From assembly GCA_964555575.1 (NCBI GenBank), contig CAZKTH010000001.1:1-53711 (forward strand): 53,711 nucleotides of DNA, in the 5' to 3' direction. The translations under genes and the position numbers were made by a program. Below are positions 11,684 to 40,392 of this stretch, one piece after another; position 1 is the stretch's first letter; the number at the start of each line of letters is the position of its first letter. Below the pieces are notes generated by a model, which had not been told where the DNA came from, searched no databases, and saw nothing but the letters and a program-made list of their open reading frames with translations. The stretch comes from an uncultured Devosiaceae bacterium. GTDB taxonomy: Bacteria > Pseudomonadota > Alphaproteobacteria > Rhizobiales > Devosiaceae.

Positions 11684-11710
11684 GGGCGCGCTTCGGCGCC
11701 CCTTTTGTTG
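11684..11710 (+). terminator. Possible intrinsic terminator (GGGCGC-gcttcg-GCGCCC followed by CTTTTGTTG)
   Basis: A 6-bp GC stem, 6-nt loop and T-rich tail read on the plus strand just after the repeat. No CDS ends nearby, so its role is unclear. Confidence 0.3.
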
Positions 11711-11787
11711 AATGCGCTCGCTCTGACGCTTTGCGGCCCTCGGTCCGGATCAAGGCGTCCGGACGATGCGGCGCCTTCGCGCATTCC

Positions 11788-29160: not shown

Positions 29161-29259
29161 GAGCATCGTGCGCAAAAGTGGGTCCCGGTTTTGCGCAAAA
29201 ACGATGCGACAACAAGAACATAGAGCGACGAAGCGATTCAACTTGAAGGCGCGCCGCTC
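29161..29259 (+). repeat. Intergenic hairpin repeat, module B (copy 2)
   Basis: 99 nt. Hand alignment to 42079-42178 gives 6 mismatches and a 1-nt gap. There are two hairpins: GCATCG..GCGCAAAA/TTTTGCGC..CGATGC and GAGCGACG.../...CGCCGCTC. Confidence 0.9.
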
Positions 29260-29500
29260 CATGTCCGGACGCCCGACGCAAGCTTCACCGTGCCGGCCTT
29301 CAAGGTCACCGTTTCCGATACCACCAGATGTGGCGACAGCTGTTGTGGCGGGTTTGTCGCCGGACTATCCATGGGCTACGATTTGGAGAAAGCATGCCGG
29401 CTCGGCACAGCCGTTTCGGCGCTGGTGGCAACGGGATCGGGATCCGACGCCGGCGTCGAGAATCTCGAGCACACACTTCAATTCATGGCGGACACGTCAT
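29260..29500 (+). pseudogene. 5'-truncated PfkB-family sugar kinase remnant (C-terminal ATP-binding region only)
   Basis: The frame of 29290 reads ...FTVPAFKVTVSDTTRCGDSCCGGFVAGLSMGYDLEKACRLGTAVSALVATGSGSDAG.... This fits the PfkB C-terminal signature (DTTGAGD..GGF..G) with the glycines degraded. The homology begins exactly where repeat copy B2 ends. Confidence 0.5.
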
Positions 29501-29581
29501 GGCGGACACGAAAATCCTTTGAAGAAGCCCTCGCGAACGGAAGCCGAAAGGATCGAGCGCAACAGCGCGCAGAAGAACGAC

Positions 29582-30520
29582 ATGCTGCTCGCGCATGTGG
29601 CCATCCTTTACTACAAGGACGGGCTGACGCAGAGCGAGATCGCCAAACGTCTCGGCGTCTCCCGCGCGACGGTGGTGAATTACCTGCGTTCGGCGCGCGA
29701 GCAGAACATCGTCGATATCCGTATATCCGGTTCGTCCTTTGTTGGGTCGCGACTGTCCAGGGACCTCAAGGAACGCTTTGGGCTCGAGGACGTCTATATC
29801 GCGATTGTGTTTCCGGGCACCGCGCTCAGCCTGGCGAAGCAGGCGGCGGAAATCCGTCGTCAGGTCGCGCGGGTCGGCGCCATGGCGCTTTGCGACCTGG
29901 TGCAGGCCGGCAACGTGCTGGGGGTTGCCTGGGGCGAGACCATCCGGCGTCTATCGGAGGAACTTCCAAGGAGCTCGGTACGCAATCTGACGGTGTGCCA
30001 GTTGATCGGCTCGATGAAGTCCCCCCTGCTTTCGGCGGCGGAAACCTGCGCGATCCGCATCGCCTCGAACCTTGGCGCCGACTGCTACACCCTGCATGCG
30101 CCGGCGGTTCTGACCAGTGCCAAGCTGGCCGAGGAGCGCAAGGTCGAGCCGATCATCCAGACACAGTTGCAGCGTTTGAACACCCTGACCAAAACGCTGT
30201 TTTCGGTGGGCAATTGCGAAACATCGACCCACATCATCCAGGCCGGAATCACCACCCAGAAGGAACTGGACTGGTATCGCTCGCAAGGCGCGGTCGGCGT
30301 CATTTGCGGACGCTTCATCGATGCCTCGGGGCGGCATATCGAGGGCAAGGTCGATGCGCGCATGATCAGCATCACGCCGGCTCAGATGAAGAAGGTCAAA
30401 ACCGGCATCCTGGTCGCATCCGGCACCGAAAAGATCGAGGTGATCAAGGCAGCGCTTGCCGGCGGCTACGCCACCCACCTCATCATCGTTGAGCCGACGG
30501 GCAAACAGCTCCTGAGCTGA
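29582..30520 (+). CDS. SorC/DeoR-type sugar-binding transcriptional regulator
   Basis: LLAHVAILYYKDGLTQSEIAKRLGVSRATVVNYLRSAREQNIVDIRI HTH and a C-terminal sugar-phosphate-binding domain. The start is ATG at 29582, or alternatively TTG at 29519. The N-terminal 138 aa of the 450-aa ORF is read-through of the repeat and kinase stub. Confidence 0.8.
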   Translation: MLLAHVAILYYKDGLTQSEIAKRLGVSRATVVNYLRSAREQNIVDIRISGSSFVGSRLSRDLKERFGLEDVYIAIVFPGTALSLAKQAAEIRRQVARVGAMALCDLVQAGNVLGVAWGETIRRLSEELPRSSVRNLTVCQLIGSMKSPLLSAAETCAIRIASNLGADCYTLHAPAVLTSAKLAEERKVEPIIQTQLQRLNTLTKTLFSVGNCETSTHIIQAGITTQKELDWYRSQGAVGVICGRFIDASGRHIEGKVDARMISITPAQMKKVKTGILVASGTEKIEVIKAALAGGYATHLIIVEPTGKQLLS

Positions 30521-30881: not shown

Positions 30882-32675
30882 ATGGAGTCCGCATCCGAAA
30901 CGCCACGTCAGAGGGTTCGCAGTCTTTTCGGCGCCGCGCGCCGTCGCGGCGAGTTTCTGGTCGGCGCCGCGATCGGGGCGGGCATTCTTGGACAGGCGGC
31001 CGAAAAGGGCGGGGCGGATTTCGTGTTGGCGCTCGGTGCCGGCCGTTTTCGCATCATGGGTGCCGCCTCGGTGGCGTGCATGCTGCCAATCCGCGACAGC
31101 AACCAGTTCGTCACCCAGTTCGCTTCGTCGGAAATGCTGAGTCAGATCTCGATCCCGGTCTATTTCGGAGCCTCGACGCTCGACCCCGGACTGTCGGTCG
31201 AGACGCTGGCCGACGAAATCGCCGATCTCGGATTTGCCGGGGTCGTGAACTTTCCGACCGTCGGGCATTATCCGGCCCGGATGCGTGCCGCCCTCGATGC
31301 CGCCGGCATCGGCTTTTCCAAGGAACTGTCGCTGTTTTCCGCCGCTCACGATCGCGGCCTCAGCACGCTCGCCTATGTGCGTACCGGCGAACAGGCGCGG
31401 GCGGCAGCGGCGTGCGGGGTCGATATCGTCTGCTTCAATTTCGGCTGGAACGCCGGAGGCGTCCAGGGACTGGTCAGCGAGATCGGCATCGAGGAAGCGG
31501 CCGTGCAGTCGCGCGAGATATCGCGGATCGTCGCCCGCGAAAATCCGGACAGCTTCTTCGTTCTCGAGGGCGGACCGATCGAGGATCCGGATCAAGTGGC
31601 GGCGATCTGCCGGGTCGCGCATATTCATGGCTATGTCGGCGGTTCGACCATTGACCGGCTGCCGCTGGCCGAATCCGTCGCCAGCCAGACCCTGCGCTTC
31701 AAGTCGGCGGCAGTTCTGGCCCGCGTGCTCTCCAACGAGGAAAGCGCCCTGATCTCTTTCGGTCATCGCATCGGGCTGGCCGGCAGATCCGAGGCCATGA
31801 TCCGGGTCTACGAGACCATCGAGCGGTTCAGCGACTCGAACGAGTCGATGCTCGTGGCCGGTGCCCCTGGCAGCGGACGCCAGACCACCGTCGAGGCACT
31901 CCACACCCTGTCGGGCGGCAACCCGCAGCAGCTCGCCGTGGTCCACGCCGCCGAGACCTCGGGCCAGCAGGTCATGATCACCCTGTTCGGGCGCAGGGCC
32001 GTGGAGGGTGGCGGTTTTCTGACGGGCCTTGCCGGACGCGACGACATCGCGACCATCGTCGTTCGGGGGATCGAGCACATTCCCACCAAGATGCAGGCCC
32101 GCATCGCCGTCTACATGGAACGGGGCCGGTTCACCCCGATCGGCGGACGACGCTCGGTGCAGTGGGGCAAGCGGCTTCTGTTCATCGCCGACGCGCCGCT
32201 CGCAACGCTGCTCGCCGAGGGCCGCATCGACCCGGGTCTGGCCCAGCAGATCGAGGGATACGAGATCGTCCTGCCCGCACTCAGCGACCGGGCCGAGGAC
32301 ATCGAGGAACTGATCAATGACGCCGTCTCCCGCCTGATCGAAAAGGAATCCGGGCAGCGGCCGGTGCTGTCGCCACTCGCCATGCGGCGGCTCAGGCGCC
32401 ACGACTGGCCGGGCAACCTGCCGGAGCTCAGGGCTTTCGCTGCCAGGCTGGTGTCGCACCATGCCGGCAGTCGCGTCGATGAAGAGGCGGTGGAAAGCCT
32501 GCTGTCCGGCGAGACCGACCGCGGTCGTCGTCGCGTCGCTTCCGAGCGCGACATGGTGCTCGATGCCCTGTGGCGCCACGGCTTCCACCGCGGCCACACC
32601 GCAGCCTTTCTCGGCATTTCGCGCAAGACGCTCTACAACAAGATCCAGCGCTACCATCTCACCCGGCAGCGTTGA
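30882..32675 (+). CDS. bEBP-like transcriptional regulator: N-terminal PEP-hydrolase-like TIM-barrel domain, degenerate sigma54-interaction AAA+ module, and Fis-type HTH
   Basis: Residues about 25-270 resemble the protein encoded at 39559 (GFAGVVNFPTVGHYPARMRAALDAAGIGF). Residues about 300-530 are colinear with the NtrC-type AAA+ module (WPGNLPELRAF) but carry altered Walker A, Walker B and GAFTGA motifs. The C-terminus is AAFLGISRKTLYNKIQRY. Confidence 0.8.
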   Translation: MESASETPRQRVRSLFGAARRRGEFLVGAAIGAGILGQAAEKGGADFVLALGAGRFRIMGAASVACMLPIRDSNQFVTQFASSEMLSQISIPVYFGASTLDPGLSVETLADEIADLGFAGVVNFPTVGHYPARMRAALDAAGIGFSKELSLFSAAHDRGLSTLAYVRTGEQARAAAACGVDIVCFNFGWNAGGVQGLVSEIGIEEAAVQSREISRIVARENPDSFFVLEGGPIEDPDQVAAICRVAHIHGYVGGSTIDRLPLAESVASQTLRFKSAAVLARVLSNEESALISFGHRIGLAGRSEAMIRVYETIERFSDSNESMLVAGAPGSGRQTTVEALHTLSGGNPQQLAVVHAAETSGQQVMITLFGRRAVEGGGFLTGLAGRDDIATIVVRGIEHIPTKMQARIAVYMERGRFTPIGGRRSVQWGKRLLFIADAPLATLLAEGRIDPGLAQQIEGYEIVLPALSDRAEDIEELINDAVSRLIEKESGQRPVLSPLAMRRLRRHDWPGNLPELRAFAARLVSHHAGSRVDEEAVESLLSGETDRGRRRVASERDMVLDALWRHGFHRGHTAAFLGISRKTLYNKIQRYHLTRQR

Positions 32676-32695
32676 GCTTCCCAAGGGTGCGGGTG

Positions 32696-33382
32696 TCAGT
32701 CGAGCAGGACGCCGTCGGCGCCGGCCTCATGCGCCTGCGCGGCGGACAGGCCCAGACGGCCGCCGAACAGGACAATCGGAATTTCCAGTCCCGCCCGTTC
32801 CTCCAGGTCCGCCACCTGGCGGCAGAAGCCCAGCAACCCTTTCGAATCGAAGCTGCCTTCGTTCCACAGATCGAAACTCGGTACGATGAAAAGATAGGAC
32901 GGCTCGAGCGCGAACGCGGGAACGACGTCGTCGACATGGGCGACGGCAACAGAAATGGCAAAACCGAGATCCGCGAACCGCTTGAGCACCTGCCGCTCGC
33001 GTATCGGCCCGACATTGAGGTCATTGAGGATCGATCGGAAGCTGGAGCCGTACTGGGCGGCGTTCGGCAGGTTCACAAGGTTCCGGTAACCCTTGTCCGC
33101 CAGACGCTCGGCAAGCTGGTCGACCCGCAGAAACGGATCGGCGGCAAGGATGCCGATGATCGGATGCTCGCCGGGCGGGCAGTAGGGCATGGCCTCGAGC
33201 TCCAGCAACAGATCGTTGTTGTGATCCCGATTCGGCATCAGGCCCGACAGTTCGATCGGCAGGTCCGGGACGCGCCGGATGGGCGGCAGGACGATGTCGC
33301 CGCTGCGCGCAACGCTCGGCGTGACGTGACCCGCCCCCATCACGATACGATTCCAGGCTGAAGGATTCTGCAAATTCACCAC
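32696..33382 (-). CDS. Short, divergent PEP-hydrolase-like TIM-barrel paralog (228 aa)
   Basis: IVMGAGHV..., PIIGILAADPFLRVDQLAERLADKGYRNLVNLPNAAQYGSSFRSILNDLNVGPIRERQV aligns by eye with the 39559 product and the regulator N-domain. Third-position GC is high. GTG start at 33382, with an alternative ATG 14 codons in. Confidence 0.6.
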   Translation of the reverse strand: MVNLQNPSAWNRIVMGAGHVTPSVARSGDIVLPPIRRVPDLPIELSGLMPNRDHNNDLLLELEAMPYCPPGEHPIIGILAADPFLRVDQLAERLADKGYRNLVNLPNAAQYGSSFRSILNDLNVGPIRERQVLKRFADLGFAISVAVAHVDDVVPAFALEPSYLFIVPSFDLWNEGSFDSKGLLGFCRQVADLEERAGLEIPIVLFGGRLGLSAAQAHEAGADGVLLD

Positions 33383-33591
33383 GGCAATTACCCGATTTTA
33401 CCCAACTGTCATTCCAATCCCGCTTGGCGGTCCTGTCAAGCAGGCATACAGTCTCCGGCGTAGACAGGGAGGCAGGAGAAGCGGAACGACGGCCCGGAAA
33501 CAAAGAATCCGGCCCGTTTCCAGCAACTCTTTCCAACAGACAACAACGAACCGCACGTGAAAGGCGCCCGCTTCGTCGGGGCGGCGACTGC

Positions 33592-34455
33592 ATGGATTCG
33601 CGCTACGTCATACTTGTGCTCAATGGCCTTACGCAGGGGGCGTTGTTCTTCGTCCTCGGCAGCGGACTGACATTGGCCTTCGGGCTCATGCGCATCGTCA
33701 ATATGAGCCATGGCGCCTTCTATCTCCTCGGGGGCTATCTGGGCCTTGCGACCCTGAGGGTCACGGGGAGTTGGGTTCTGGCGCTGGCGGCCGCCGGCCT
33801 TTCCATCGCCGTGCTCGGCTTTGCGATCGAACGCGGCATGCTGGCACGGGTCCGCGAAGGCGGGGATCTGTCCCAGACCCTTTTGACGATTGCGATCTCG
33901 ATGATCATTGCCGACCTCGCCCTTGCCATGTGGGGCGGACATCCGCTGTCGATCACGTCGCCCGCGGCCATCAGCAGGCCGGTCACGCTGTTCGGACTGA
34001 CCTATCCCGGCTTCCGCTATGTGCTGATGGCCATCAGCGTCGTGATCGCCTTTGTGCTGTGGTTCATCCTGTTCCGAACCAAATTCGGCATCGCCGTGCG
34101 CGCCAGTGTCGATGATCGCGAGACGGTCAGCGCGCTTGGCGTGCGCATCGACGTGATCTATTCGCTGATGTTCATGCTGTCGGCCTTTCTCGGCGGCGTC
34201 GCGGGCGTGCTCGGCGGCACCTATCTCCAACTCAGTCCGGGCGAGGACACGACCATCCTCACCTATTCGCTGGTTGTGGTCATCGTCGGCGGCCTTGGCA
34301 GCCTGACCGGCGCCATCGTCAGTTCGCTGATCCTCGGGCAGATCCTGTCCTTCAGCCTGGCTTTCGCGCCGCAATTGTCGATGTTCCTGGTCTTCGTGCC
34401 CATGGCCCTGGTGCTCGCGCTCCGCCCCGAAGGTCTTTTCGGGAGGCGGCTGTGA
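33592..34455 (+). CDS. Branched-chain-amino-acid-type (HAAT family) ABC permease, LivH-like
   Basis: MDSRYVILVLNGLTQGALFFVLGSGLTLAFGLMRIVNMSHGAFYLLGGY is the classic LivH N-terminus. Confidence 0.9.
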   Translation: MDSRYVILVLNGLTQGALFFVLGSGLTLAFGLMRIVNMSHGAFYLLGGYLGLATLRVTGSWVLALAAAGLSIAVLGFAIERGMLARVREGGDLSQTLLTIAISMIIADLALAMWGGHPLSITSPAAISRPVTLFGLTYPGFRYVLMAISVVIAFVLWFILFRTKFGIAVRASVDDRETVSALGVRIDVIYSLMFMLSAFLGGVAGVLGGTYLQLSPGEDTTILTYSLVVVIVGGLGSLTGAIVSSLILGQILSFSLAFAPQLSMFLVFVPMALVLALRPEGLFGRRL

Positions 34456-35498
34456 TGGCCAACCTGCTCGAGAGCCTCGGCAAGACCCGGCTGGCGGTCT
34501 CGGCCGTCATCATTCTGGCGCTGGTGGCGCTTCCCGCCTATGGCGACCAGTACACGCTGACGACCTTCATCCGCATCGGCTATTTTGGCTTCCTCGCCCT
34601 GAGCGTCGGCCTGCTGCTGGGCCAGGGCGGCATGATCAGCCTCACCCAGACCGCCTTTTTCGGCATGAGCGGCTACGCCATCGGACTGCTCGGCACCGAA
34701 CGGGGCATACCGTTCCCCATTCCCGAACTGACGGGCCTGGTTCTGGTCGCCGCGGCCGCCTTCCTGTTCGGCCTGGTGGTCATGCGCACGCACGGGATCG
34801 TCTTTCTCATGCTGACGCTGGCGCTCGGACAGATCTGCTGGTCCTTCGCGCGCCAGAACACCAGCCTTCTGCACGGCTGGGCCGGCATCAGGGACATCCA
34901 TCCGCCGCAACTGTTCGGAATCGATCTGACCCAGAACGCCAATTTCTACTGGATGACGCTGATCCTGTTCGGCCTGGCACTTTTGTTCCTGTGGCGATTG
35001 ATCGAATCGCCCTTCGGCCTGGCGCTGAACGGGATCCGCGAAAGCCCCCGCCGCATGAGCGCCCTCGGCTACCCGGTATTCTGGCTGCGCGTGACGATCT
35101 TCGTCATCGCCGCCGTGCTGGCCGGCGTCGGCGGCATACTGGCGGCCTGGTCATCCGGGATCGTTACCCCGACCGCACTTCAGCTGAGCCGGACGATCTG
35201 GATCCTGCTGATCGTCATCCTGGGCGGCGCCCAGTATTTCTGGGGCCCGGTTCTGGGAGCGGTCATCGCGGTCTGGCTCGATGTCATCATCAGCCAGATG
35301 ACCCCCCGCTACAACACCGTGGTCGGCCTGATCTTCGTCATCGTCATCATGCTTGCCCCGACCGGCATTCTCGGGGTGTGGCACAAAATCAAGGCCAGAC
35401 GACAGGCCCGCCGCGAAGCGCTGGCCACATCCGCACAACCCAACCACAGGAAGGCGCCATCGGCCGAGCCGCATGGGACAGCCAAGGAGGAGGAGTGA
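34452..35498 (+). CDS. HAAT-family ABC permease, LivM-like
   Basis: Multi-TM protein with GQGGMISLTQTAFFGMSGY. The start overlaps the livH-like stop. It has a basic C-terminal tail. Confidence 0.85.
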   Translation: MMANLLESLGKTRLAVSAVIILALVALPAYGDQYTLTTFIRIGYFGFLALSVGLLLGQGGMISLTQTAFFGMSGYAIGLLGTERGIPFPIPELTGLVLVAAAAFLFGLVVMRTHGIVFLMLTLALGQICWSFARQNTSLLHGWAGIRDIHPPQLFGIDLTQNANFYWMTLILFGLALLFLWRLIESPFGLALNGIRESPRRMSALGYPVFWLRVTIFVIAAVLAGVGGILAAWSSGIVTPTALQLSRTIWILLIVILGGAQYFWGPVLGAVIAVWLDVIISQMTPRYNTVVGLIFVIVIMLAPTGILGVWHKIKARRQARREALATSAQPNHRKAPSAEPHGTAKEEE

Positions 35499-35503
35499 AG
35501 ACC

Positions 35504-36817
35504 ATGAACTACAACAAACTCAGAAGAACGCTTGCGGCCATCGCCGCGGCAGGCGTGATCGCGGCACCGGCAGCCGTTCTGGCTGCCGAAGACAGCATCA
35601 CCATCGGCATGCTGAGTGCTTTCACCGGGGCGTTCGCCTCGTTCGGACAGCTGCAGAAGGAAGGCGCGGTGCTGGCGCTCGAGCAGTGGGACTACACCGC
35701 TGGCGGCAAGACCATCAAGATGATCTATGCCGACGACCAGCTCGACAACGAACTGGCCGTCACCAAGGCCAAGCAGCTCGTCGAGCAGGACAAGGTCGAC
35801 GTCGTCACCGGTCTGGTGTCCGGCGACGAGGGTCTGTCGGTCGGCGCCTATATGAAGGGCAAGGACATTCCGGTCGTGCCCATGTACTCGGCCTCCGAGG
35901 ACATGACCATGCGCGAATGGTATTCCTTCATCGTTCGCCCGACCTGGACCGGCGCCCAGCCCATGGACGTTTTCGGCTACTGGCTTGCCAAGGAAAAGGG
36001 TCTCAAGAAGATCTACATGATCGGCGAGGACTACTCCTATCCCTACAATCAGGCCGGCGGCTTCAAGCGCGGTTTCCTCAGGGGCGGCGGCGAGGAAGTG
36101 ACCACCATCTGGCACCCGGTGCCGACCTCGGACTATTCCTCGATCATCGCCTCGATCCCGCTCGATCAGGGCTATGACGCCGTGCTCTACAACGGCGCCG
36201 GCTCGGACGCGGTGGCCTTCGTCAAGCAGTATGTCGAATTCGGCATGCAGAACCAGATTCCGCTGCTCGGCCAGTCCAACACCTTCGAAAAGCCGGATCT
36301 CGATTCCATGCCGACGGCCATTGTCGGTTCGTACTCGGCACACCTGACCGCCGACGACATGAACACGCCCAACTGGAACAAGTTCCGTGATGCTTTCGTG
36401 GAACGCTGGGGCCACAGCCCGTCGGCCGCTTCCGAGTTCGCCTATGGCTCGATGGAACTGATCCTCAGGGCGATTGACGCGCTTTCCGGCAATGTCGCGG
36501 ACAAGGCTGCCCTGATCGAGGCCATGAGAAACGTCAATCTCACCGACGAGCCGCGCGGACCCGTGACGCTCGACGAATACAATGCGGCGGTCGAGAACGT
36601 CTATATCCGCGAAGTCGCCCTCGCCGACGACGGCACCATGTACAACAAGGGTCTGTTCACCGCCGAGGCCGTGAGCCAGTTCGGGCCCTATGACTCCGTG
36701 GTCTACATGGCCGAGCCGGCCGACGGCCGCGACGAGCCGACCGGACTGCGCAGCAAGATGCCCGAAGAAATGCTGAACGTTGCGAAGGACTACCAGTTCG
36801 TGCCCTTCGGGCAGTAG
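35504..36817 (+). CDS. Periplasmic substrate-binding protein, Leu/Ile/Val-binding (Peripla_BP_6-like) type
   Basis: Signal peptide MNYNKLRRTLAAIAAAGVIAAPAAVLA, then ITIGMLSAFTGAFASFGQ...GAVLALEQ..., the typical LivK-type pattern. AAGGAGGAGGAG RBS. Confidence 0.85.
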   Translation: MNYNKLRRTLAAIAAAGVIAAPAAVLAAEDSITIGMLSAFTGAFASFGQLQKEGAVLALEQWDYTAGGKTIKMIYADDQLDNELAVTKAKQLVEQDKVDVVTGLVSGDEGLSVGAYMKGKDIPVVPMYSASEDMTMREWYSFIVRPTWTGAQPMDVFGYWLAKEKGLKKIYMIGEDYSYPYNQAGGFKRGFLRGGGEEVTTIWHPVPTSDYSSIIASIPLDQGYDAVLYNGAGSDAVAFVKQYVEFGMQNQIPLLGQSNTFEKPDLDSMPTAIVGSYSAHLTADDMNTPNWNKFRDAFVERWGHSPSAASEFAYGSMELILRAIDALSGNVADKAALIEAMRNVNLTDEPRGPVTLDEYNAAVENVYIREVALADDGTMYNKGLFTAEAVSQFGPYDSVVYMAEPADGRDEPTGLRSKMPEEMLNVAKDYQFVPFGQ

Positions 36818-36844
36818 GTGCTTTCCCGGTAGCATGGTGCATCA

Positions 36845-37609
36845 ATGACCAACCCCGATCAGAAGCTCGCCATCGTCACCCGGCAGGTGTCCAAGACCTT
36901 CGGCGGCGTCAAGGCGGTCCAGGGCGTGGATCTTTCCATTGCCGTGGGCGAACGGCGTGCCCTGATCGGGCCGAACGGTGCCGGCAAGTCGACGCTGTTC
37001 AATCTGATCACCGGAGAAATTCCGGTCGACAACGGACAAATCGAAGTTCTCGGCCGGGACGCGACCCGCCTCAGCGTACAGCGTCGCGCCCGGCTGGGGC
37101 TGGGACGCACCTACCAGATTTCCCAGCTTTTTCTCAATCTGACGGTAGAACAGGGCCTGTTCCTCGCCTGCGGGGCAGGAACCGGCATCGCCTTTTCCAT
37201 GTTCAGCCGATGGCGCGATCGCGGCGAGGATCTCGAATGGATCCGCGACGTGGCCGAACAGGTCGGCCTGACCGAGCATCTTCATCGAACCGTCGGCGAA
37301 CTGGCGCATGGGCTTCAACGCCAGCTCGAACTCGGCATGGCGCTCGCCATGCGCCCCAGGCTCGTCATGCTCGACGAGCCGGCAGCGGGACTTTCCCCGG
37401 CCGAACGCCAGACGCTTGTGGGGCTCATCCTCAAGATGGCGCCCGACATCACACTCATCCTGATCGAGCATGACATGGACATCGTCATGGAACTGGCACA
37501 GCGCATCACCGTGTTGCATCGGGGCGCCGTGATCACGGAGGGCACGCCCGAGGAAATCCGCCAGGACGAGACGGTGCAGCGCATCTACCTGGGAGAGGTC
37601 CATGCCTGA
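36845..37609 (+). CDS. HAAT-family ABC ATPase, LivG-like
   Basis: Walker A GPNGAGKST, Walker B LVMLDEPAAGL, and a LivG-type C-terminus (YLGE). Confidence 0.9.
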   Translation: MTNPDQKLAIVTRQVSKTFGGVKAVQGVDLSIAVGERRALIGPNGAGKSTLFNLITGEIPVDNGQIEVLGRDATRLSVQRRARLGLGRTYQISQLFLNLTVEQGLFLACGAGTGIAFSMFSRWRDRGEDLEWIRDVAEQVGLTEHLHRTVGELAHGLQRQLELGMALAMRPRLVMLDEPAAGLSPAERQTLVGLILKMAPDITLILIEHDMDIVMELAQRITVLHRGAVITEGTPEEIRQDETVQRIYLGEVHA

Positions 37610-38324
37610 CACCGCCGCCACCGCGCCGGTTCTCGTTCTCGAGGATCTGCATGCCTCCTATGGCGAAAGCCACGTCTTGCAGGGCTGTTCGCTTACCGTC
37701 GGCCACGAATGCGTCACGGTTCTGGGACGCAACGGCATGGGCAAGACGACGCTGCTGCGCGCCATTCTCGGTCTGACCCCGCCGAGTTCGGGACGCGTGC
37801 TGCTGAACGGCGAGGAGATGACCCATCTCAAGCCGTTCCAGATCGCCGAACACGGCATCGGCTACGTGCCGCAGGGACGGCGCCTTTTTCAGTCGCTGAC
37901 GGTGCAGGAACACCTCACCCTGACCTACGCTGCCAGACGCGGGACGGACGAATGGACGCCCAAGCGGGTGTTCGACCTGTTCCCCGAACTGTGGGACCGG
38001 CGGAACATCAGCGGCACGCGCCTTTCCGGCGGCGAACAGCAGATGCTGGCGATCGGCCGGGCGCTGGTCACCAATCCCAGGATCCTGATGCTGGACGAAC
38101 CGTCCGAAGGATTGTCGCCGGTTGCCAATGAGCGGGTCATCGAAACCTGCCGGACGTTGCAGCGCGAAGGACTCTCGGTGTTGCTCGTCGAACAGAATAT
38201 CCACGTCGCCGAAGCGCTGGCGGACCGCATCTACGTCATCCTGAGCGGCAGGACCGTTTACGAATCCCCTGCCCCGGAATTCCTCTCGAACCGGGAGCTC
38301 CGGCAGAAATATCTCGGTGTTTGA
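37602..38324 (+). CDS. HAAT-family ABC ATPase, LivF-like
   Basis: GRNGMGKTT, LSGGEQQMLAIGRAL, ILMLDEPSEGL, and the C-terminal YLGV. Confidence 0.9.
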   Translation: MPDTAATAPVLVLEDLHASYGESHVLQGCSLTVGHECVTVLGRNGMGKTTLLRAILGLTPPSSGRVLLNGEEMTHLKPFQIAEHGIGYVPQGRRLFQSLTVQEHLTLTYAARRGTDEWTPKRVFDLFPELWDRRNISGTRLSGGEQQMLAIGRALVTNPRILMLDEPSEGLSPVANERVIETCRTLQREGLSVLLVEQNIHVAEALADRIYVILSGRTVYESPAPEFLSNRELRQKYLGV

Positions 38325-38336
38325 AGGAGAAAATCC

Positions 38337-39554
38337 ATGAAAACCGTCGCAATTGTGGGAACGCTTGATACCAAGGGCGCCGAGTTCGGCTTCCTCAAGG
38401 CCGAGATCGAACGGCATGGCTGCGCCACCCTGGTGCTCGATGCGGGCGTTTCGGGCAAGCCGGCCTTTGCCCCGGATGTCACCGCCGAGGAAATCTGTGC
38501 CGAGGGCGAAAACACCATCTCGTCGCTGCAGGCGCTCGAGCGTGGCGCCGCTCTCGACATCATGGCCAGGATGCTGCCGGTCGCCGTGAAGCGCTTGTTC
38601 GAGCAGGGGCGGTTCGACGGCATCATTTCGATGGGCGGCGGCGGCGGTACGGCCCTCGGCACAAGTGCCATGCGGCCACTGCCCATCGGCGTGCCCAAAA
38701 TCATGGTGTCGACCCTCGCTGCGGCCGATACCAGTCCCTATGTCGGTTCGAGCGACATCATCATGATGCCCTCGATCGTCGACGTCTCGGGGCTCAACCG
38801 TATTTCGCAAACGATCTTCGCCAATGCCGCCGCGGCGATCTGCGGCATGGTTGCGAACAGGGACGAAGCGCCGGCGGCTGCCGATGAGCGTCCGCTCGTT
38901 GCCGCCTCGATGTTCGGCAATACCACGCGTGCCGTCGATCATGCGCGCAAGCTCATCGAGCAAGCGGGCTACGAGGTCCTGGTCTTTCACGCCACCGGCG
39001 CCGGCGGGCGGACAATGGAACGCCTGATCGGCGAAGGCTATTTCGCCGGCGTTCTCGACATCACCACAACCGAATGGGCCGACGAATTGTGCGGCGGCGC
39101 CCTCAGCGCCGGACCGGCGCGTCTCGATGCGGCGGCGGCGGCAGGCGTTCCGCAGGTGGTGACGCCAGCCTGCATCGACATGTGCAATTTCTGGGCGCCG
39201 GAGACCATTCCGTCCCGCTATGGCGACCGCAAGTTCCATCACTGGAGCCCGAACGTCACGCTGATGCGGACCACACCGGAGGAGAACGCCGCCATCGGGC
39301 GCGTTTTCGCCGAAAAGCTGTCGACCGCCGCGGGACCGGTTGCCGTACTCGTGCCGATGAAGGGGTTCTCCGAAATCGATGCGCCGGACAAGCAGTTCTG
39401 GTGGCCCGAAGCCGACCAGGCATTCGTCGATGCACTGCGCGCCGGGCTCCGTCCGGACATCCCGGTGATGCTGCTCGACTACAACGTCAACGACGCGGAA
39501 TTCGCCGAACAGGCGGCAAACACGCTGCTGCAAATGCTGAACAAAAGGAAGTGA
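38337..39554 (+). CDS. UPF0261-family protein (Tm-1 N-terminal-domain-like, putative nucleotide-binding)
   Basis: [21 protein letters not shown]..., MGGGGGT, MFGNTT and [12 protein letters not shown] are the characteristic UPF0261 pattern as I recall it. GAAGGAGA RBS. 12 nt after the livF-like stop. Confidence 0.8.
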
Positions 39555-39558
39555 CAAA

Positions 39559-40392
39559 ATGGCCATCGCACGAGCGGACATCCTGCGGAAACTGAACGAG
39601 CAGGCAAAGGCGGGCATCCCAATCGTCGGGGGTGGCGCCGGCACCGGCATTTCGGCCAAATGCGAAGAAGCCGGCGGCGTCGACCTCCTGGTGATCTACA
39701 ATACCGGCCGCTACCGCATGGCGGGACGCGTCTCGATCACCGGTCTTTTCGCCTATGGCGACGCCAACCAGATTGTCGTCGAGATGGCGGGCGAGGTCCT
39801 GCCCGTGGTCAAGAAGACCCCCGTCCTGGCCGGGGTGAACGCGACCGACCCGTTCCGGTCGATGCCGGTCTTTCTGAAGCAGATCAAGGAACTCGGATTC
39901 TCGGGCGTGCAGAACTTCCCGACCGTCGGCCTGTTCGACGGCAGGATGCGGGCGAACATGGAAGCGACCGGACTCGGCTATGCCAAGGAGGTCGAGATGA
40001 TCCGCCTCGCCCACGAGATGGATCTGCTCACCACGCCCTATGTCTTCAATGCGGAAGAGGCAAAGGCCATGGCCGAAGCCGGCGCCGATATCATCGTCGC
40101 CCATGTCGGCCTGACGACCGGCGGCTCGATCGGCGCCGCCGACGCCTTCTCCCTGGACGACGCGATCGATACCACGCTCAAGATCGCCGCGGCCGCCCGT
40201 TCGGTTCGTCCGGACCTCCTGATCATCTGCCACGGCGGGCCCTTCGACGAGCCGGAGAACGTGGCCGAGGCGATGAAACGCATGCCGGGCATCAATGGCT
40301 TTTTCGGCGCTTCCAGCATGGAACGGCTTCCTGTCGAGCGGGCCATCACCGCTCAGGTGGCGAAATTCAAGGAAATGCGGCTGACGCGATAG
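39559..40392 (+). CDS. PEP-hydrolase-like TIM-barrel protein (Tm-1 C-terminal-domain-like)
   Basis: [27 protein letters not shown]..., [16 protein letters not shown] and [17 protein letters not shown], the family pattern as I recall it. 4 nt after the UPF0261 stop. Confidence 0.75.

Follow-up and report, generated by a model that had tools for sequence, protein, structure and literature searches.

A putative solute uptake and activation module built on a UPF0261 protein and three PF09370 barrels in an uncultured Devosiaceae bacterium

Organization of the Locus

The contig CAZKTH010000001.1 of an uncultured Devosiaceae bacterium (NCBI GenBank assembly GCA_964555575.1), which was analyzed over its entire length of 53,711 bases (~64% G+C) and is referred to here as the window, carries between positions 30,882 and 40,392 nine genes in which an ATP-binding cassette (ABC) importer of the HAAT family is combined with a UPF0261 protein, an enzyme-type PF09370 triosephosphate isomerase (TIM) barrel, a regulator with a PF09370 domain, and a third, smaller PF09370 relative termed the mini-barrel (Table 1). 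Taken as a whole, regulation included, the locus is interpreted with moderate confidence as a self-contained, horizontally mobile module for the uptake and activation of a small organic solute. Three PF09370 paralogues and their known partner lie together within 9.5 kb and turn up in all related loci, which is far more than chance would produce.

A preliminary description drawn from the letters of the DNA had placed nine open reading frames (ORFs) in this interval, seven of them packed in the manner of an operon, and both proposals hold: each of the nine ORFs lies at the coordinates and on the strand listed in Table 1, and the seven co-directional genes from 33592 to 40392 are joined by overlaps of 4 and 8 nt or separated by gaps of 4–27 nt (an overlap at 34452/34455, spacers of 5 and 27 nt ahead of 35504 and 36845, an overlap of 8 nt at 37602, and spacers of 12 and 4 nt ahead of 38337 and 39559). 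Likewise, a Pfam search with the nine proteins returned every family that had been anticipated (PF09370 three times, UPF0261, Peripla_BP_6, Sigma54_activat, and HTH_8), and the by-eye alignment of the three barrel stretches was reproduced. The Pfam gathering cut-off of PF09370 (PEP_hydrolase, formerly TIM-barrel signal transduction; 33.8 bits) is reached by the product of the 39559 gene (411 bits), by residues 19–275 of the regulator (240 bits), and by the 228-aa product (35.3 bits, partial).

Table 1. Genes and control elements of the module, with positions in the window.
Feature	Coordinates	Strand	Assignment and remarks
Regulator, 597 aa	30882..32675	+	PF09370 N-domain, Sigma54_activat, AAA_lid_14, HTH_8 (Pfam)
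Mini-barrel, 228 aa	32696..33382	-	Partial PF09370; convergent with regulator, divergent from operon
Direct repeat TTACCCGATTTTACCC, presumed operator or upstream activating sequence (UAS) of the regulator	33388..33403	none	TTACCC spaced 10 bp
Tentative sigma-70-type promoter TTGGCG-N17-TACAGT for the operon	33424..33452	+	Read from sequence
HAAT-family ABC permease, LivH/UrtB-like, 287 aa	33592..34455	+	BPD_transp_2, 109 bits
HAAT-family ABC permease, LivM/UrtC-like, 348 aa	34452..35498	+	BPD_transp_2
Periplasmic solute-binding protein with Sec-type signal peptide	35504..36817	+	Peripla_BP_6, 212 bits
ABC ATPase, LivG/UrtD-like	36845..37609	+	ABC_tran and BCA_ABC_TP_C
ABC ATPase, LivF/UrtE-like	37602..38324	+	ABC_tran
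UPF0261/Tm-1-like ATP-binding protein, predicted ATP-dependent kinase	38337..39554	+	PF06792 and PF23189
Enzyme-type PF09370 TIM barrel, UPF0261 partner	39559..40392	+	PF09370, 411 bits

Conservation of the Gene Order

Related loci were collected through a scan with the UPF0261 protein, one genome being retained per species; the nine window proteins were mapped onto the resulting 80 loci, and the ORFs found there were clustered. A UPF0261 gene and a PF09370 barrel gene are adjacent in 62 of these 80 loci, in keeping with the split Tm-1-like enzyme pair that had been envisaged. The order binding protein, ATPase(s), UPF0261 protein, barrel recurs in 14 of the 80 (56–88% identity per protein), and in 12 of these 14 cassettes a permease gene lies upstream in the same order; one cassette comes from a metagenome-assembled genome (MAG) of the Rhodospirillales and the remainder from Chloroflexota and Verrucomicrobiota, so that the seven-gene order of importer, UPF0261 protein, and barrel is kept across three phyla (Alphaproteobacteria, Chloroflexota, and Verrucomicrobiota). 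All nine genes are found in identical arrangement, with other neighbors, in L002 (Rhodospirillales) and L081 (metagenomic), and the lack of a conserved gene order, which the preliminary description had named as a ground for giving up its interpretation, is thus not what is seen. The nearest relatives are Shumkonia mesophila and two MAGs, one of the Rhodospirillales and one of the Ancalomicrobiaceae.

The control genes and the transporter vary around this core. Chloroflexota versions carry a GntR/FCD regulator in place of the barrel regulator and have no counterpart of the 228-aa gene; L013 and L019 join the UPF0261-barrel pair to a differently arranged HAAT system, and plasmid pHV3 of Haloferax volcanii joins it to a HAAT system as well, these being independent linkages; and other pairs lie beside CUT1 sugar importers and Gfo/Idh/MocA, xylose-isomerase-like, creatininase, FAD-oxidase, and cupin genes. 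A second recurrent context was noted in Aggregatilineales/Anaerolineae (L025, L030, L033, L040, L051, L052, and L058–L061), where a sugar ABC importer, two xylose-isomerase-like barrels, a Gfo/Idh/MocA protein, the UPF0261-barrel pair, and a GntR/FCD regulator are followed by a second UPF0261 gene without a barrel, a creatininase-family protein, an FAD-linked oxidase, and a cupin.

The UPF0261 Protein as a Predicted Kinase

The N and C domains of the UPF0261 family are both present in the 38337 product (PF06792, 213 bits; PF23189, 295 bits), which also scores 557 bits against the NCBIfam model NF002674 (cut-off 335) and finds its solved relatives in Tm-1 (PDB 3WRY, 275 bits) and MarK (PDB 9MPY, 208 bits over aa 4–400). 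MarK (Saro_1862 of Novosphingobium aromaticivorans), reported in 2025, is a stand-alone UPF0261 kinase of phenolic ketones and aldehydes that converts ATP to ADP and whose phosphoryl acceptor is the phenolic hydroxyl of acetovanillone and related compounds; its activity is, according to its authors, the first catalytic function in the UPF0261 family, and its structure has been deposited as PDB 9MPY (PMC12624787). The earlier statement that no bacterial substrate had been assigned is therefore outdated as far as UPF0261 is concerned (PMC12624787), but MarK is not an orthologue of the window protein and works without a barrel partner.

Alignment with MarK indicates that the ATP-site motif is kept, D11-T12-K13 corresponding to D14-T15-K16 of MarK (K20 in Tm-1), as is H218, which lies in the conserved stretch VFHATGAGG and corresponds to MarK H219, a residue that bonds to the phosphoryl-acceptor oxygen (PMC12624787). 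In the acetovanillone pocket, G195 of MarK is kept as G194 and five other residues are changed. Given that the ATP motif and the acceptor histidine are retained while the rest of the pocket has changed, we infer that the window protein is a predicted kinase with a substrate other than that of MarK.

The Enzyme Barrel

The enzyme barrel matches 2P10 (Mll9387 of Mesorhizobium loti) with 361 bits over 270 residues and 56–58% identity in a Foldseek search, and its model has the (beta/alpha)8 fold, with a TM-score of 0.80 against 2P10. An argument from a “standard phosphate-binding motif” or from PEP (phosphoenolpyruvate)-mutase chemistry was dropped because the fold search singled out no superfamily beyond 2P10. 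The literature search found no reported activity for any PF09370 member, and the name “PEP hydrolase” is a label only.

More than 8000 homologues of the enzyme barrel exist, the best 120 of which (P0151–P0270) are 79–92% identical to it. This level of identity spans Alphaproteobacteria, Castellaniella, Spirochaetia, and Anaerolineae, while the UPF0261 partner is 60–68% identical in the same loci; the high identity of the barrel points to unusually strong constraint or to recent transfer. In two Anaerolineae cassettes, an extra full-length PF09370 paralogue is inserted between the UPF0261 protein and the enzyme barrel (L003, 11276–12224; L009, 11277–12192).

The Importer and Its Link to the UPF0261 Protein

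The importer belongs to the HAAT family (TC 3.A.1.4), two BPD_transp_2 permeases, two ATPases, and a Peripla_BP_6 protein being encoded in one cluster, and the 287-aa permease aligns end to end with its homologues. The best NCBIfam models for all five transporter parts are those of UrtA–E; a urea transporter UrtABCDE was nevertheless rejected, as the scores fall below the cut-offs throughout (86/493, 126/250, 132/296, 230/304, and 229/286 bits for UrtA–E, respectively). The best solved relatives of the binding protein are 4EY3/4EYG/4EYK, 4ZPJ, 4EVS, 4F06, and 4EVQ (128 to 78 bits), to which it is ~30% identical from end to end, whereas urea binders reach ~56 bits. Most of 4EY3/4EYG/4EYK, 4EVS, 4F06, and 4EVQ are binders of benzoate derivatives from Rhodopseudomonas palustris, reportedly described by Michalska in 2012. 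Benzoate binding by RPA0668 is cited in PMC6079105.

In two related loci, the LivF-like ABC ATPase and the UPF0261 protein form one uninterrupted ORF (L084, 16775–18931, 718 aa; L089, 11410–13602, 730 aa), the two parts being joined by a Pro/Ala-rich linker of ~80 residues; the regulators of these loci are 50% and 36% identical, respectively, to that of the window. As Rosetta-stone evidence, such fusions indicate that the predicted kinase acts at the importer.

The Regulator: A Sensor-Type Barrel on a Degenerate AAA+ Core

The 597-aa regulator, a 100% match to P0001 in NCBI, combines its N-terminal PF09370 domain with a Sigma54_activat domain of merely 52.8 bits and, at residues 555–591, an HTH_8 domain (41 bits), that is, the Fis-type C-terminal helix-turn-helix (HTH) of bacterial enhancer-binding proteins (EBPs). 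When 65 enzyme barrels were aligned together with 115 regulator N-domains and 29 mini-barrels, the regulator barrels proved to keep residues that resemble ligand contacts (R51, R53, S59, N70, N119, R131, E144, and D177, together with the GGP motif and the segment GxGG[ST]), but enzyme-invariant residues are systematically replaced: K34 (variable; Q in the window), Y47 (by L), E79, D127 (by P), H182 (by N), T186 (by N), and H225 (by E). This pattern is the one expected of a ligand-binding pseudo-enzyme. In Enterococcus dispar ATCC 51266 (L073, 8699–12053), a sensor-type PF09370 barrel and an AraC HTH form one fusion protein, whose gene immediately precedes a UPF0261-barrel pair; this is a second regulator architecture, independent of the first, that makes use of the same sensor barrel. 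As the sensor-type barrel is thus found with both EBP and AraC outputs, it would serve as the sensor of the operon with two different DNA-binding outputs, and the suggestion of a regulator whose sensor is a paralogue of the enzyme gains support from the residue pattern in 115 regulators as well as from the AraC fusion. The AraC-barrel locus adjoins conjugative-transposon genes (TcpC, NlpC/P60-lysozyme).

The AAA+ core is a different matter. Aligned with PspF, the window regulator has GAPGSGRQ in place of GERGTGKE at Walker A, so that Arg stands for the Lys of GxxxxGK; the GAFTGA loop, which contacts sigma-54, is deleted or replaced (RRAVEGGGFLTG); IVVRGI replaces LFLDEL at Walker B; and the arginine fingers are lost, IDPGLAQQI replacing FRADLLDRL. 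Among 115 full-length family members, canonical AAA+ motifs are kept in P0069 and P0082 only (partly in P0072) and are lost in about 110; the regulator encoded on pNGR234a keeps the Walker A Lys and has no GAFTGA. The anticipated PF00158 hit is therefore nominal, the core lacking the Walker A Lys, GAFTGA, the DE of Walker B, and the arginine fingers and there being no -24/-12 promoter; judged by these motifs, the window regulator is not a working sigma-54 activator. Because P0082 is intact and goes with a perfect sigma-54 site while the motifs are lost elsewhere, the family appears to descend from a true sigma-54 activator, the branch represented in the window having evidently lost the ATPase and the sigma-54 contact and kept the fold, the lid, and the HTH.

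The Control Region

The TTACCC-N4-TTACCC repeat (TTACCCGATTTTACCC at 33388–33403) is the sole match to this pattern in the window, where 0.04 would be expected; it occurs exactly once in all ten regulator loci examined and in none of 80 other loci, while one-mismatch repeats of the TTACCC type are present in L088 and on pNGR234a (TTTACCCAATTCTACCCA). It is presumed to be an operator-like cis element common to regulator-bearing loci. The string TTGGCG-N17-TA(C/G)AGT, conserved in the window, L002, and L081, begins 20 nt downstream of the repeat; if TTGGCG-N17-TACAGT is a promoter, the repeat spans about -57 to -72 and is centered near -65, a usual activator position, and we infer that the two may act as operon promoter and activator site.

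Within 33383–33591, no TGGCAC-N5-TTGC site was found with up to two mismatches, and hence no -24/-12 promoter; scans of the control region for sigma-70 promoters and terminators gave nothing useful. The sigma-54 search had its positive control in L088, the locus of the P0082 regulator and the one locus examined with canonical AAA+ motifs in its regulator: the intergenic region ahead of the transporter operon holds a perfect sigma-54 promoter (TGGCACGGCTCTTGC at 11709–11723), the only zero-mismatch site in 19.9 kb, with TTACCC-type elements on either side as an inverted pair. Rfam and tRNA scans of the whole window came back empty, and no riboswitch is therefore present in the ~130-nt leader.

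The Mini-Barrel

The third barrel, described previously as a further copy of the same module, is a PF09370 relative with a 2P10-like fold, as proposed, but it is a regulator-linked mini-barrel and not simply a copy of the enzyme. It has 30 homologues (36–70% identity) with the conserved motifs LPNRDHN, ADPF, NLPxxxQYG, and GPxRE, of which LPNRDHN, ADPF, NxP, and GxxxE are invariant, and its AlphaFold2 model (pLDDT 87.7) has 2P10 as its top fold match (TM-score 0.74). The weak 35.3-bit PF09370 match is thus real, since the family is conserved and the model resembles 2P10, and for its conservation and confident fold a reading of the ORF as a pseudogene fragment was likewise rejected. The protein is without the first strand region, most of the enzyme-invariant polar residues, and the C-terminal GASSxERLP segment. 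Its start is uncertain, NCBI giving 214 aa from ATG 33340 as against 228 aa from GTG 33382; the peptide that begins at GTG 33382 (xxLQxPSAWNRI) is conserved in homologues, which favors the 228-aa start, and this start would leave the operator just 5–8 nt upstream of the start codon.

The mini-barrel gene adjoins the regulator gene in every regulator context examined: the two are convergent in L002, L081, L084, L086, L088, and L089, and in L090 the mini-barrel lies on the strand of the regulator and overlaps its start by 4 bp. On pNGR234a, it diverges from the UPF0261 gene across the operator-like repeat, and cassettes under GntR control have no such gene. On these grounds, the mini-barrel is read as a probable partner of the regulator.

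Proposed Mechanism and Alternatives

In the mechanism proposed here, the UPF0261 kinase would phosphorylate a hydroxyl or enol-type oxygen of the entering solute, converting ATP to ADP, and the enzyme barrel would convert the phosphorylated intermediate. The N-terminal barrel of the regulator would bind the solute or, more likely, the phospho-intermediate. With an AAA+ core predicted neither to hydrolyze ATP nor to contact sigma-54, the regulator would control expression as a sigma-54-independent activator, bound at TTACCC-N4-TTACCC upstream of a sigma-70-type promoter. The mini-barrel, transcribed divergently from the shared control region, would most likely modulate the regulator by barrel-barrel association, whether as a co-sensor or as a feedback anti-activator. 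A bolder joint reading, which is considered unlikely, would have the kinase docked on the importer ATPase in a group-translocation-like ABC trap, with the solute phosphorylated on emerging, while a dead-enzyme barrel on a dead-ATPase EBP reads the phospho-intermediate and the free mini-barrel tunes the output of this scaffold by competing for barrel-barrel contacts; were it true, the native chemistry of the plant Tm-1 family would also emerge.

Several observations weigh against the proposed mechanism. Five of the seven pocket residues of MarK differ in the window protein (T196 to N195, F283 to M282, I285 to N284, H304 to W303, and H348 to I347), and MarK acts without a barrel. After 2P10, the fold neighbors of the enzyme barrel (PanB, IGPS, TIM, Pdx1, and methylisocitrate lyase; TM-score ~0.53) suggest no single chemistry. 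The core is shared with sugar-type importers elsewhere, and substrate and chemistry may therefore differ between modules. The sigma-70 candidate matches the consensus weakly and did not reach the cut-off used in the promoter scan, and in L082 the mini-barrel ends the enzyme operon, a position that fits an enzyme subunit as well as a regulatory role.

As for the substrate, the amino-acid-like or organic-acid-like solute of the preliminary description is one candidate among others: the binding protein stands nearest to benzoate-derivative binders, but sister modules use sugar-type importers. The leading single guess, itself doubtful, is a hydroxylated aromatic (phenolic) acid or other planar solute whose phenolic hydroxyl would be phosphorylated in a MarK-like manner and whose aryl phosphate would be processed by the barrel: the best solved relatives of the binding protein (4EY3/4EYG/4EYK, 4EVS, 4F06, and 4EVQ) match with E-values of 3e-36 to 7e-21, MarK phosphorylates phenolics (PMC12624787), W303 replaces its pi-stacking His304, and sister loci have as neighbors a phenol hydroxylase (L086), an FAD_binding_3 hydroxylase (L088), and SRPBCC proteins (L086, L088, and L090). 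Against this guess, the binding protein is just ~30% identical to the aromatic-acid binder structures, most of the residues with which MarK holds the ketone and the ring have been exchanged (two of them for Asn), no ring-cleavage or carboxylase genes lie in or near the window module, and sister cores go with sugar importers, Gfo/Idh/MocA, and xylose-isomerase-like genes. The second guess, still less probable, is a small amide, ureide, or N-heterocycle (lactam/lactim), with lactim O-phosphorylation followed by hydrolysis, as might be imagined by analogy with the ATP-dependent lactam-opening enzymes 5-oxoprolinase and hydantoinase. HAAT systems carry amides and urea, all five transporter components score best against the UrtA–E models, UPF0261-barrel pairs repeatedly have hydrolases of the creatininase and Xaa-Pro/creatinase families and small cupins as neighbors, and a lactim hydroxyl would be chemically phenol-like; yet every Urt score is under its curated cut-off, urea binders are far weaker PDB matches than aromatic-acid binders (56 vs 128 bits), and the window module has no amidohydrolase.

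On the side of regulation, the mini-barrel may belong to the UPF0261-barrel enzyme, as its third subunit or as an adaptor, a tentative alternative that would account for its place as last gene of the enzyme operon in L082/L083 (barrel, UPF0261 protein, mini-barrel) and for the extra PF09370 paralogue between UPF0261 protein and barrel in L003 and L009; the 2P10 crystal has six chains, so that hetero-oligomers of barrels are plausible. However, the mini-barrel is absent from all 14 cassettes that lack the regulator family, even though their enzymes are 60–80% identical; its gene lies within a few bases of the regulator gene, to which it is translationally coupled in L090; and the loss of most enzyme-invariant polar residues and of the GASSxERLP segment also speaks for a partner of the regulator. 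Highly improbable is an ordinary sigma-54 EBP that drives a -24/-12 promoter, as might be suggested by the PF00158, AAA_lid_14, and HTH_8 matches, by relatives named “sigma-54-dependent Fis family transcriptional regulator,” by a GG-N10-GC string (CGGCCCGTTTCCAGCA) ~70 nt upstream of the operon, and by the one family member with a perfect sigma-54 promoter. The core of the window regulator has K changed to R at Walker A, the GAFTGA loop deleted, DE changed to RG at Walker B, and no arginine fingers, PF00158 is reached at merely 52.8 bits, and the control region holds no TGGCAC-N5-TTGC within two mismatches, all of which favors the sigma-54-independent activator.

With the families, the packing, the enzyme pair, the barrel sensor, and the gene order upheld, the interpretation first put forward is supported in part; corrections concern the PF00158 hit, the mini-barrel as an enzyme copy, the absence of any assigned bacterial substrate, and the class of the solute. 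No description was found of the composite module, of a dead AAA+ core with loss of the -24/-12 promoter, of the regulator-linked mini-barrel, of the TTACCC repeat, or of the ATPase-kinase fusions.

UPF0261 (COG5441) and PF09370 (COG5564) are among the most consistent unexplained gene pairs, occurring in bacteria, archaea, fungi, and plants (Tm-1), and one stand-alone UPF0261 enzyme has a known activity (MarK, 2025), whereas none of the barrel partners has. As the pair is accompanied here by a dedicated importer, a regulator, and a recognizable operator, its substrate could be sought directly by asking what the binding protein and the sensor barrel bind. In addition, the module illustrates how sigma-54 dependence may be lost in an EBP family while the scaffold is retained, and the same control set of regulator, mini-barrel, and operator is found on the symbiosis plasmid pNGR234a, in a model rhizobium for which genetics are available.

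Neighboring Genes

The module is flanked in the window by genes for a molybdopterin oxidoreductase, a SorC-type regulator, LrgAB, a Zn-dehydrogenase, and a TRAP transporter, which are unrelated to it; the flanks of the block elsewhere differ. The mechanically called ORF of the SorC-type regulator (29168–30520) has 450 aa, its Pfam domains begin at about residue 145, and its N-terminal ~130 residues are probably untranslated.

Other surroundings of the block were recorded in passing. In L081 (1201–3730), BufA1, MbnB-TglH-ChrH, HvfC_N, and DoxX genes lie upstream of the 84%-identical module and form a bufferin-type cluster for a ribosomally synthesized and post-translationally modified peptide, which appears to be unrelated to the module. 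Directly upstream of the module in L084 (641–9412, a JGI metagenome contig) are three MTTB-family methyltransferase genes, together with genes for an aldehyde:ferredoxin oxidoreductase, a DAO oxidase, and a GntR/UTRA regulator. In L086 (1–5283, Azospirillum halopraeferens), ~2 kb separate the module from a cluster that encodes a multicomponent phenol hydroxylase and a sigma-54 regulator of the XylR/DmpR type; the genes in between are those of an alpha/beta hydrolase, a GntR/FCD regulator, and an SRPBCC protein. The symbiosis plasmid pNGR234a of Sinorhizobium fredii NGR234 (L093, 4009–14691; y4pA region) carries a CUT1 sugar ABC importer, a 196-aa mini-barrel, the TTTACCCAATTCTACCCA element, UPF0261 and barrel genes, a cupin, a Gfo/Idh/MocA gene, and a PF09370-EBP regulator; a literature search by COG and InterPro identifiers and by y4o/y4p gene names returned no functional data. 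Besides NGR234 and A. halopraeferens, cultured carriers include Rhizobium johnstonii 3841 (pRL12), S. mesophila, and H. volcanii (pHV3).

Comparison With Known Systems

In kind, the locus is an inducible uptake-and-conversion operon with a one-component regulator, and each of its parts has a better-known relative. MarK shares with the window protein the family, the two-domain fold, the D-T-K motif, and the histidine at the acceptor oxygen; it differs in being a homodimer encoded in an acetovanillone carboxylase cluster, without a PF09370 partner, an importer, or a barrel-sensor regulator. The closest solved relatives of the UPF0261 part are tomato Tm-1 and the plant Tm-1-like proteins (PDB 3WRV–3WRY), in which UPF0261 and PF09370 are fused in one protein (PMC5028733), whereas the window has two genes 4 nt apart; the known role of Tm-1, binding of a viral replicase, is unrelated to the module (PMC5028733). 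The association of the two families as such has a STRING-type score of 0.988 (PMC8963296). Mll9387 (2P10), the founding structure of PF09370, is matched by the window barrel over 270 residues, and its title, “putative phosphonopyruvate hydrolase,” is a fold-based guess from structural genomics.

The HAAT-type aromatic-acid binders of R. palustris (4EVQ, 4EVS, 4EY3, and 4F06) have the same Peripla_BP_6 fold as the window protein at ~30% identity, in an end-to-end comparison of whole sequences. To our knowledge, the aromatic-acid transporters of R. palustris are not linked to UPF0261 or PF09370 genes.

The regulator may be set beside TyrR and the NtrC of Rhodobacter capsulatus, sigma-54-independent EBP relatives without GAFTGA: these have an EBP-like domain order, have likewise lost the sigma-54 loop, and act at sigma-70 promoters, but they keep nucleotide binding, whereas the window regulator has lost Walker A, Walker B, and the arginine fingers. 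Lastly, DhaR of Escherichia coli, an EBP-type regulator that depends on DhaK and DhaL, proteins homologous to or identical with the pathway enzymes, offers, along with other EBPs under the control of enzyme-like partners, a working analogy for the sensor barrel and the mini-barrel; DhaR has sensor domains of its own and uses real kinase subunits, whereas the window would rely on a fused pseudo-enzyme barrel and a dead AAA+ core.

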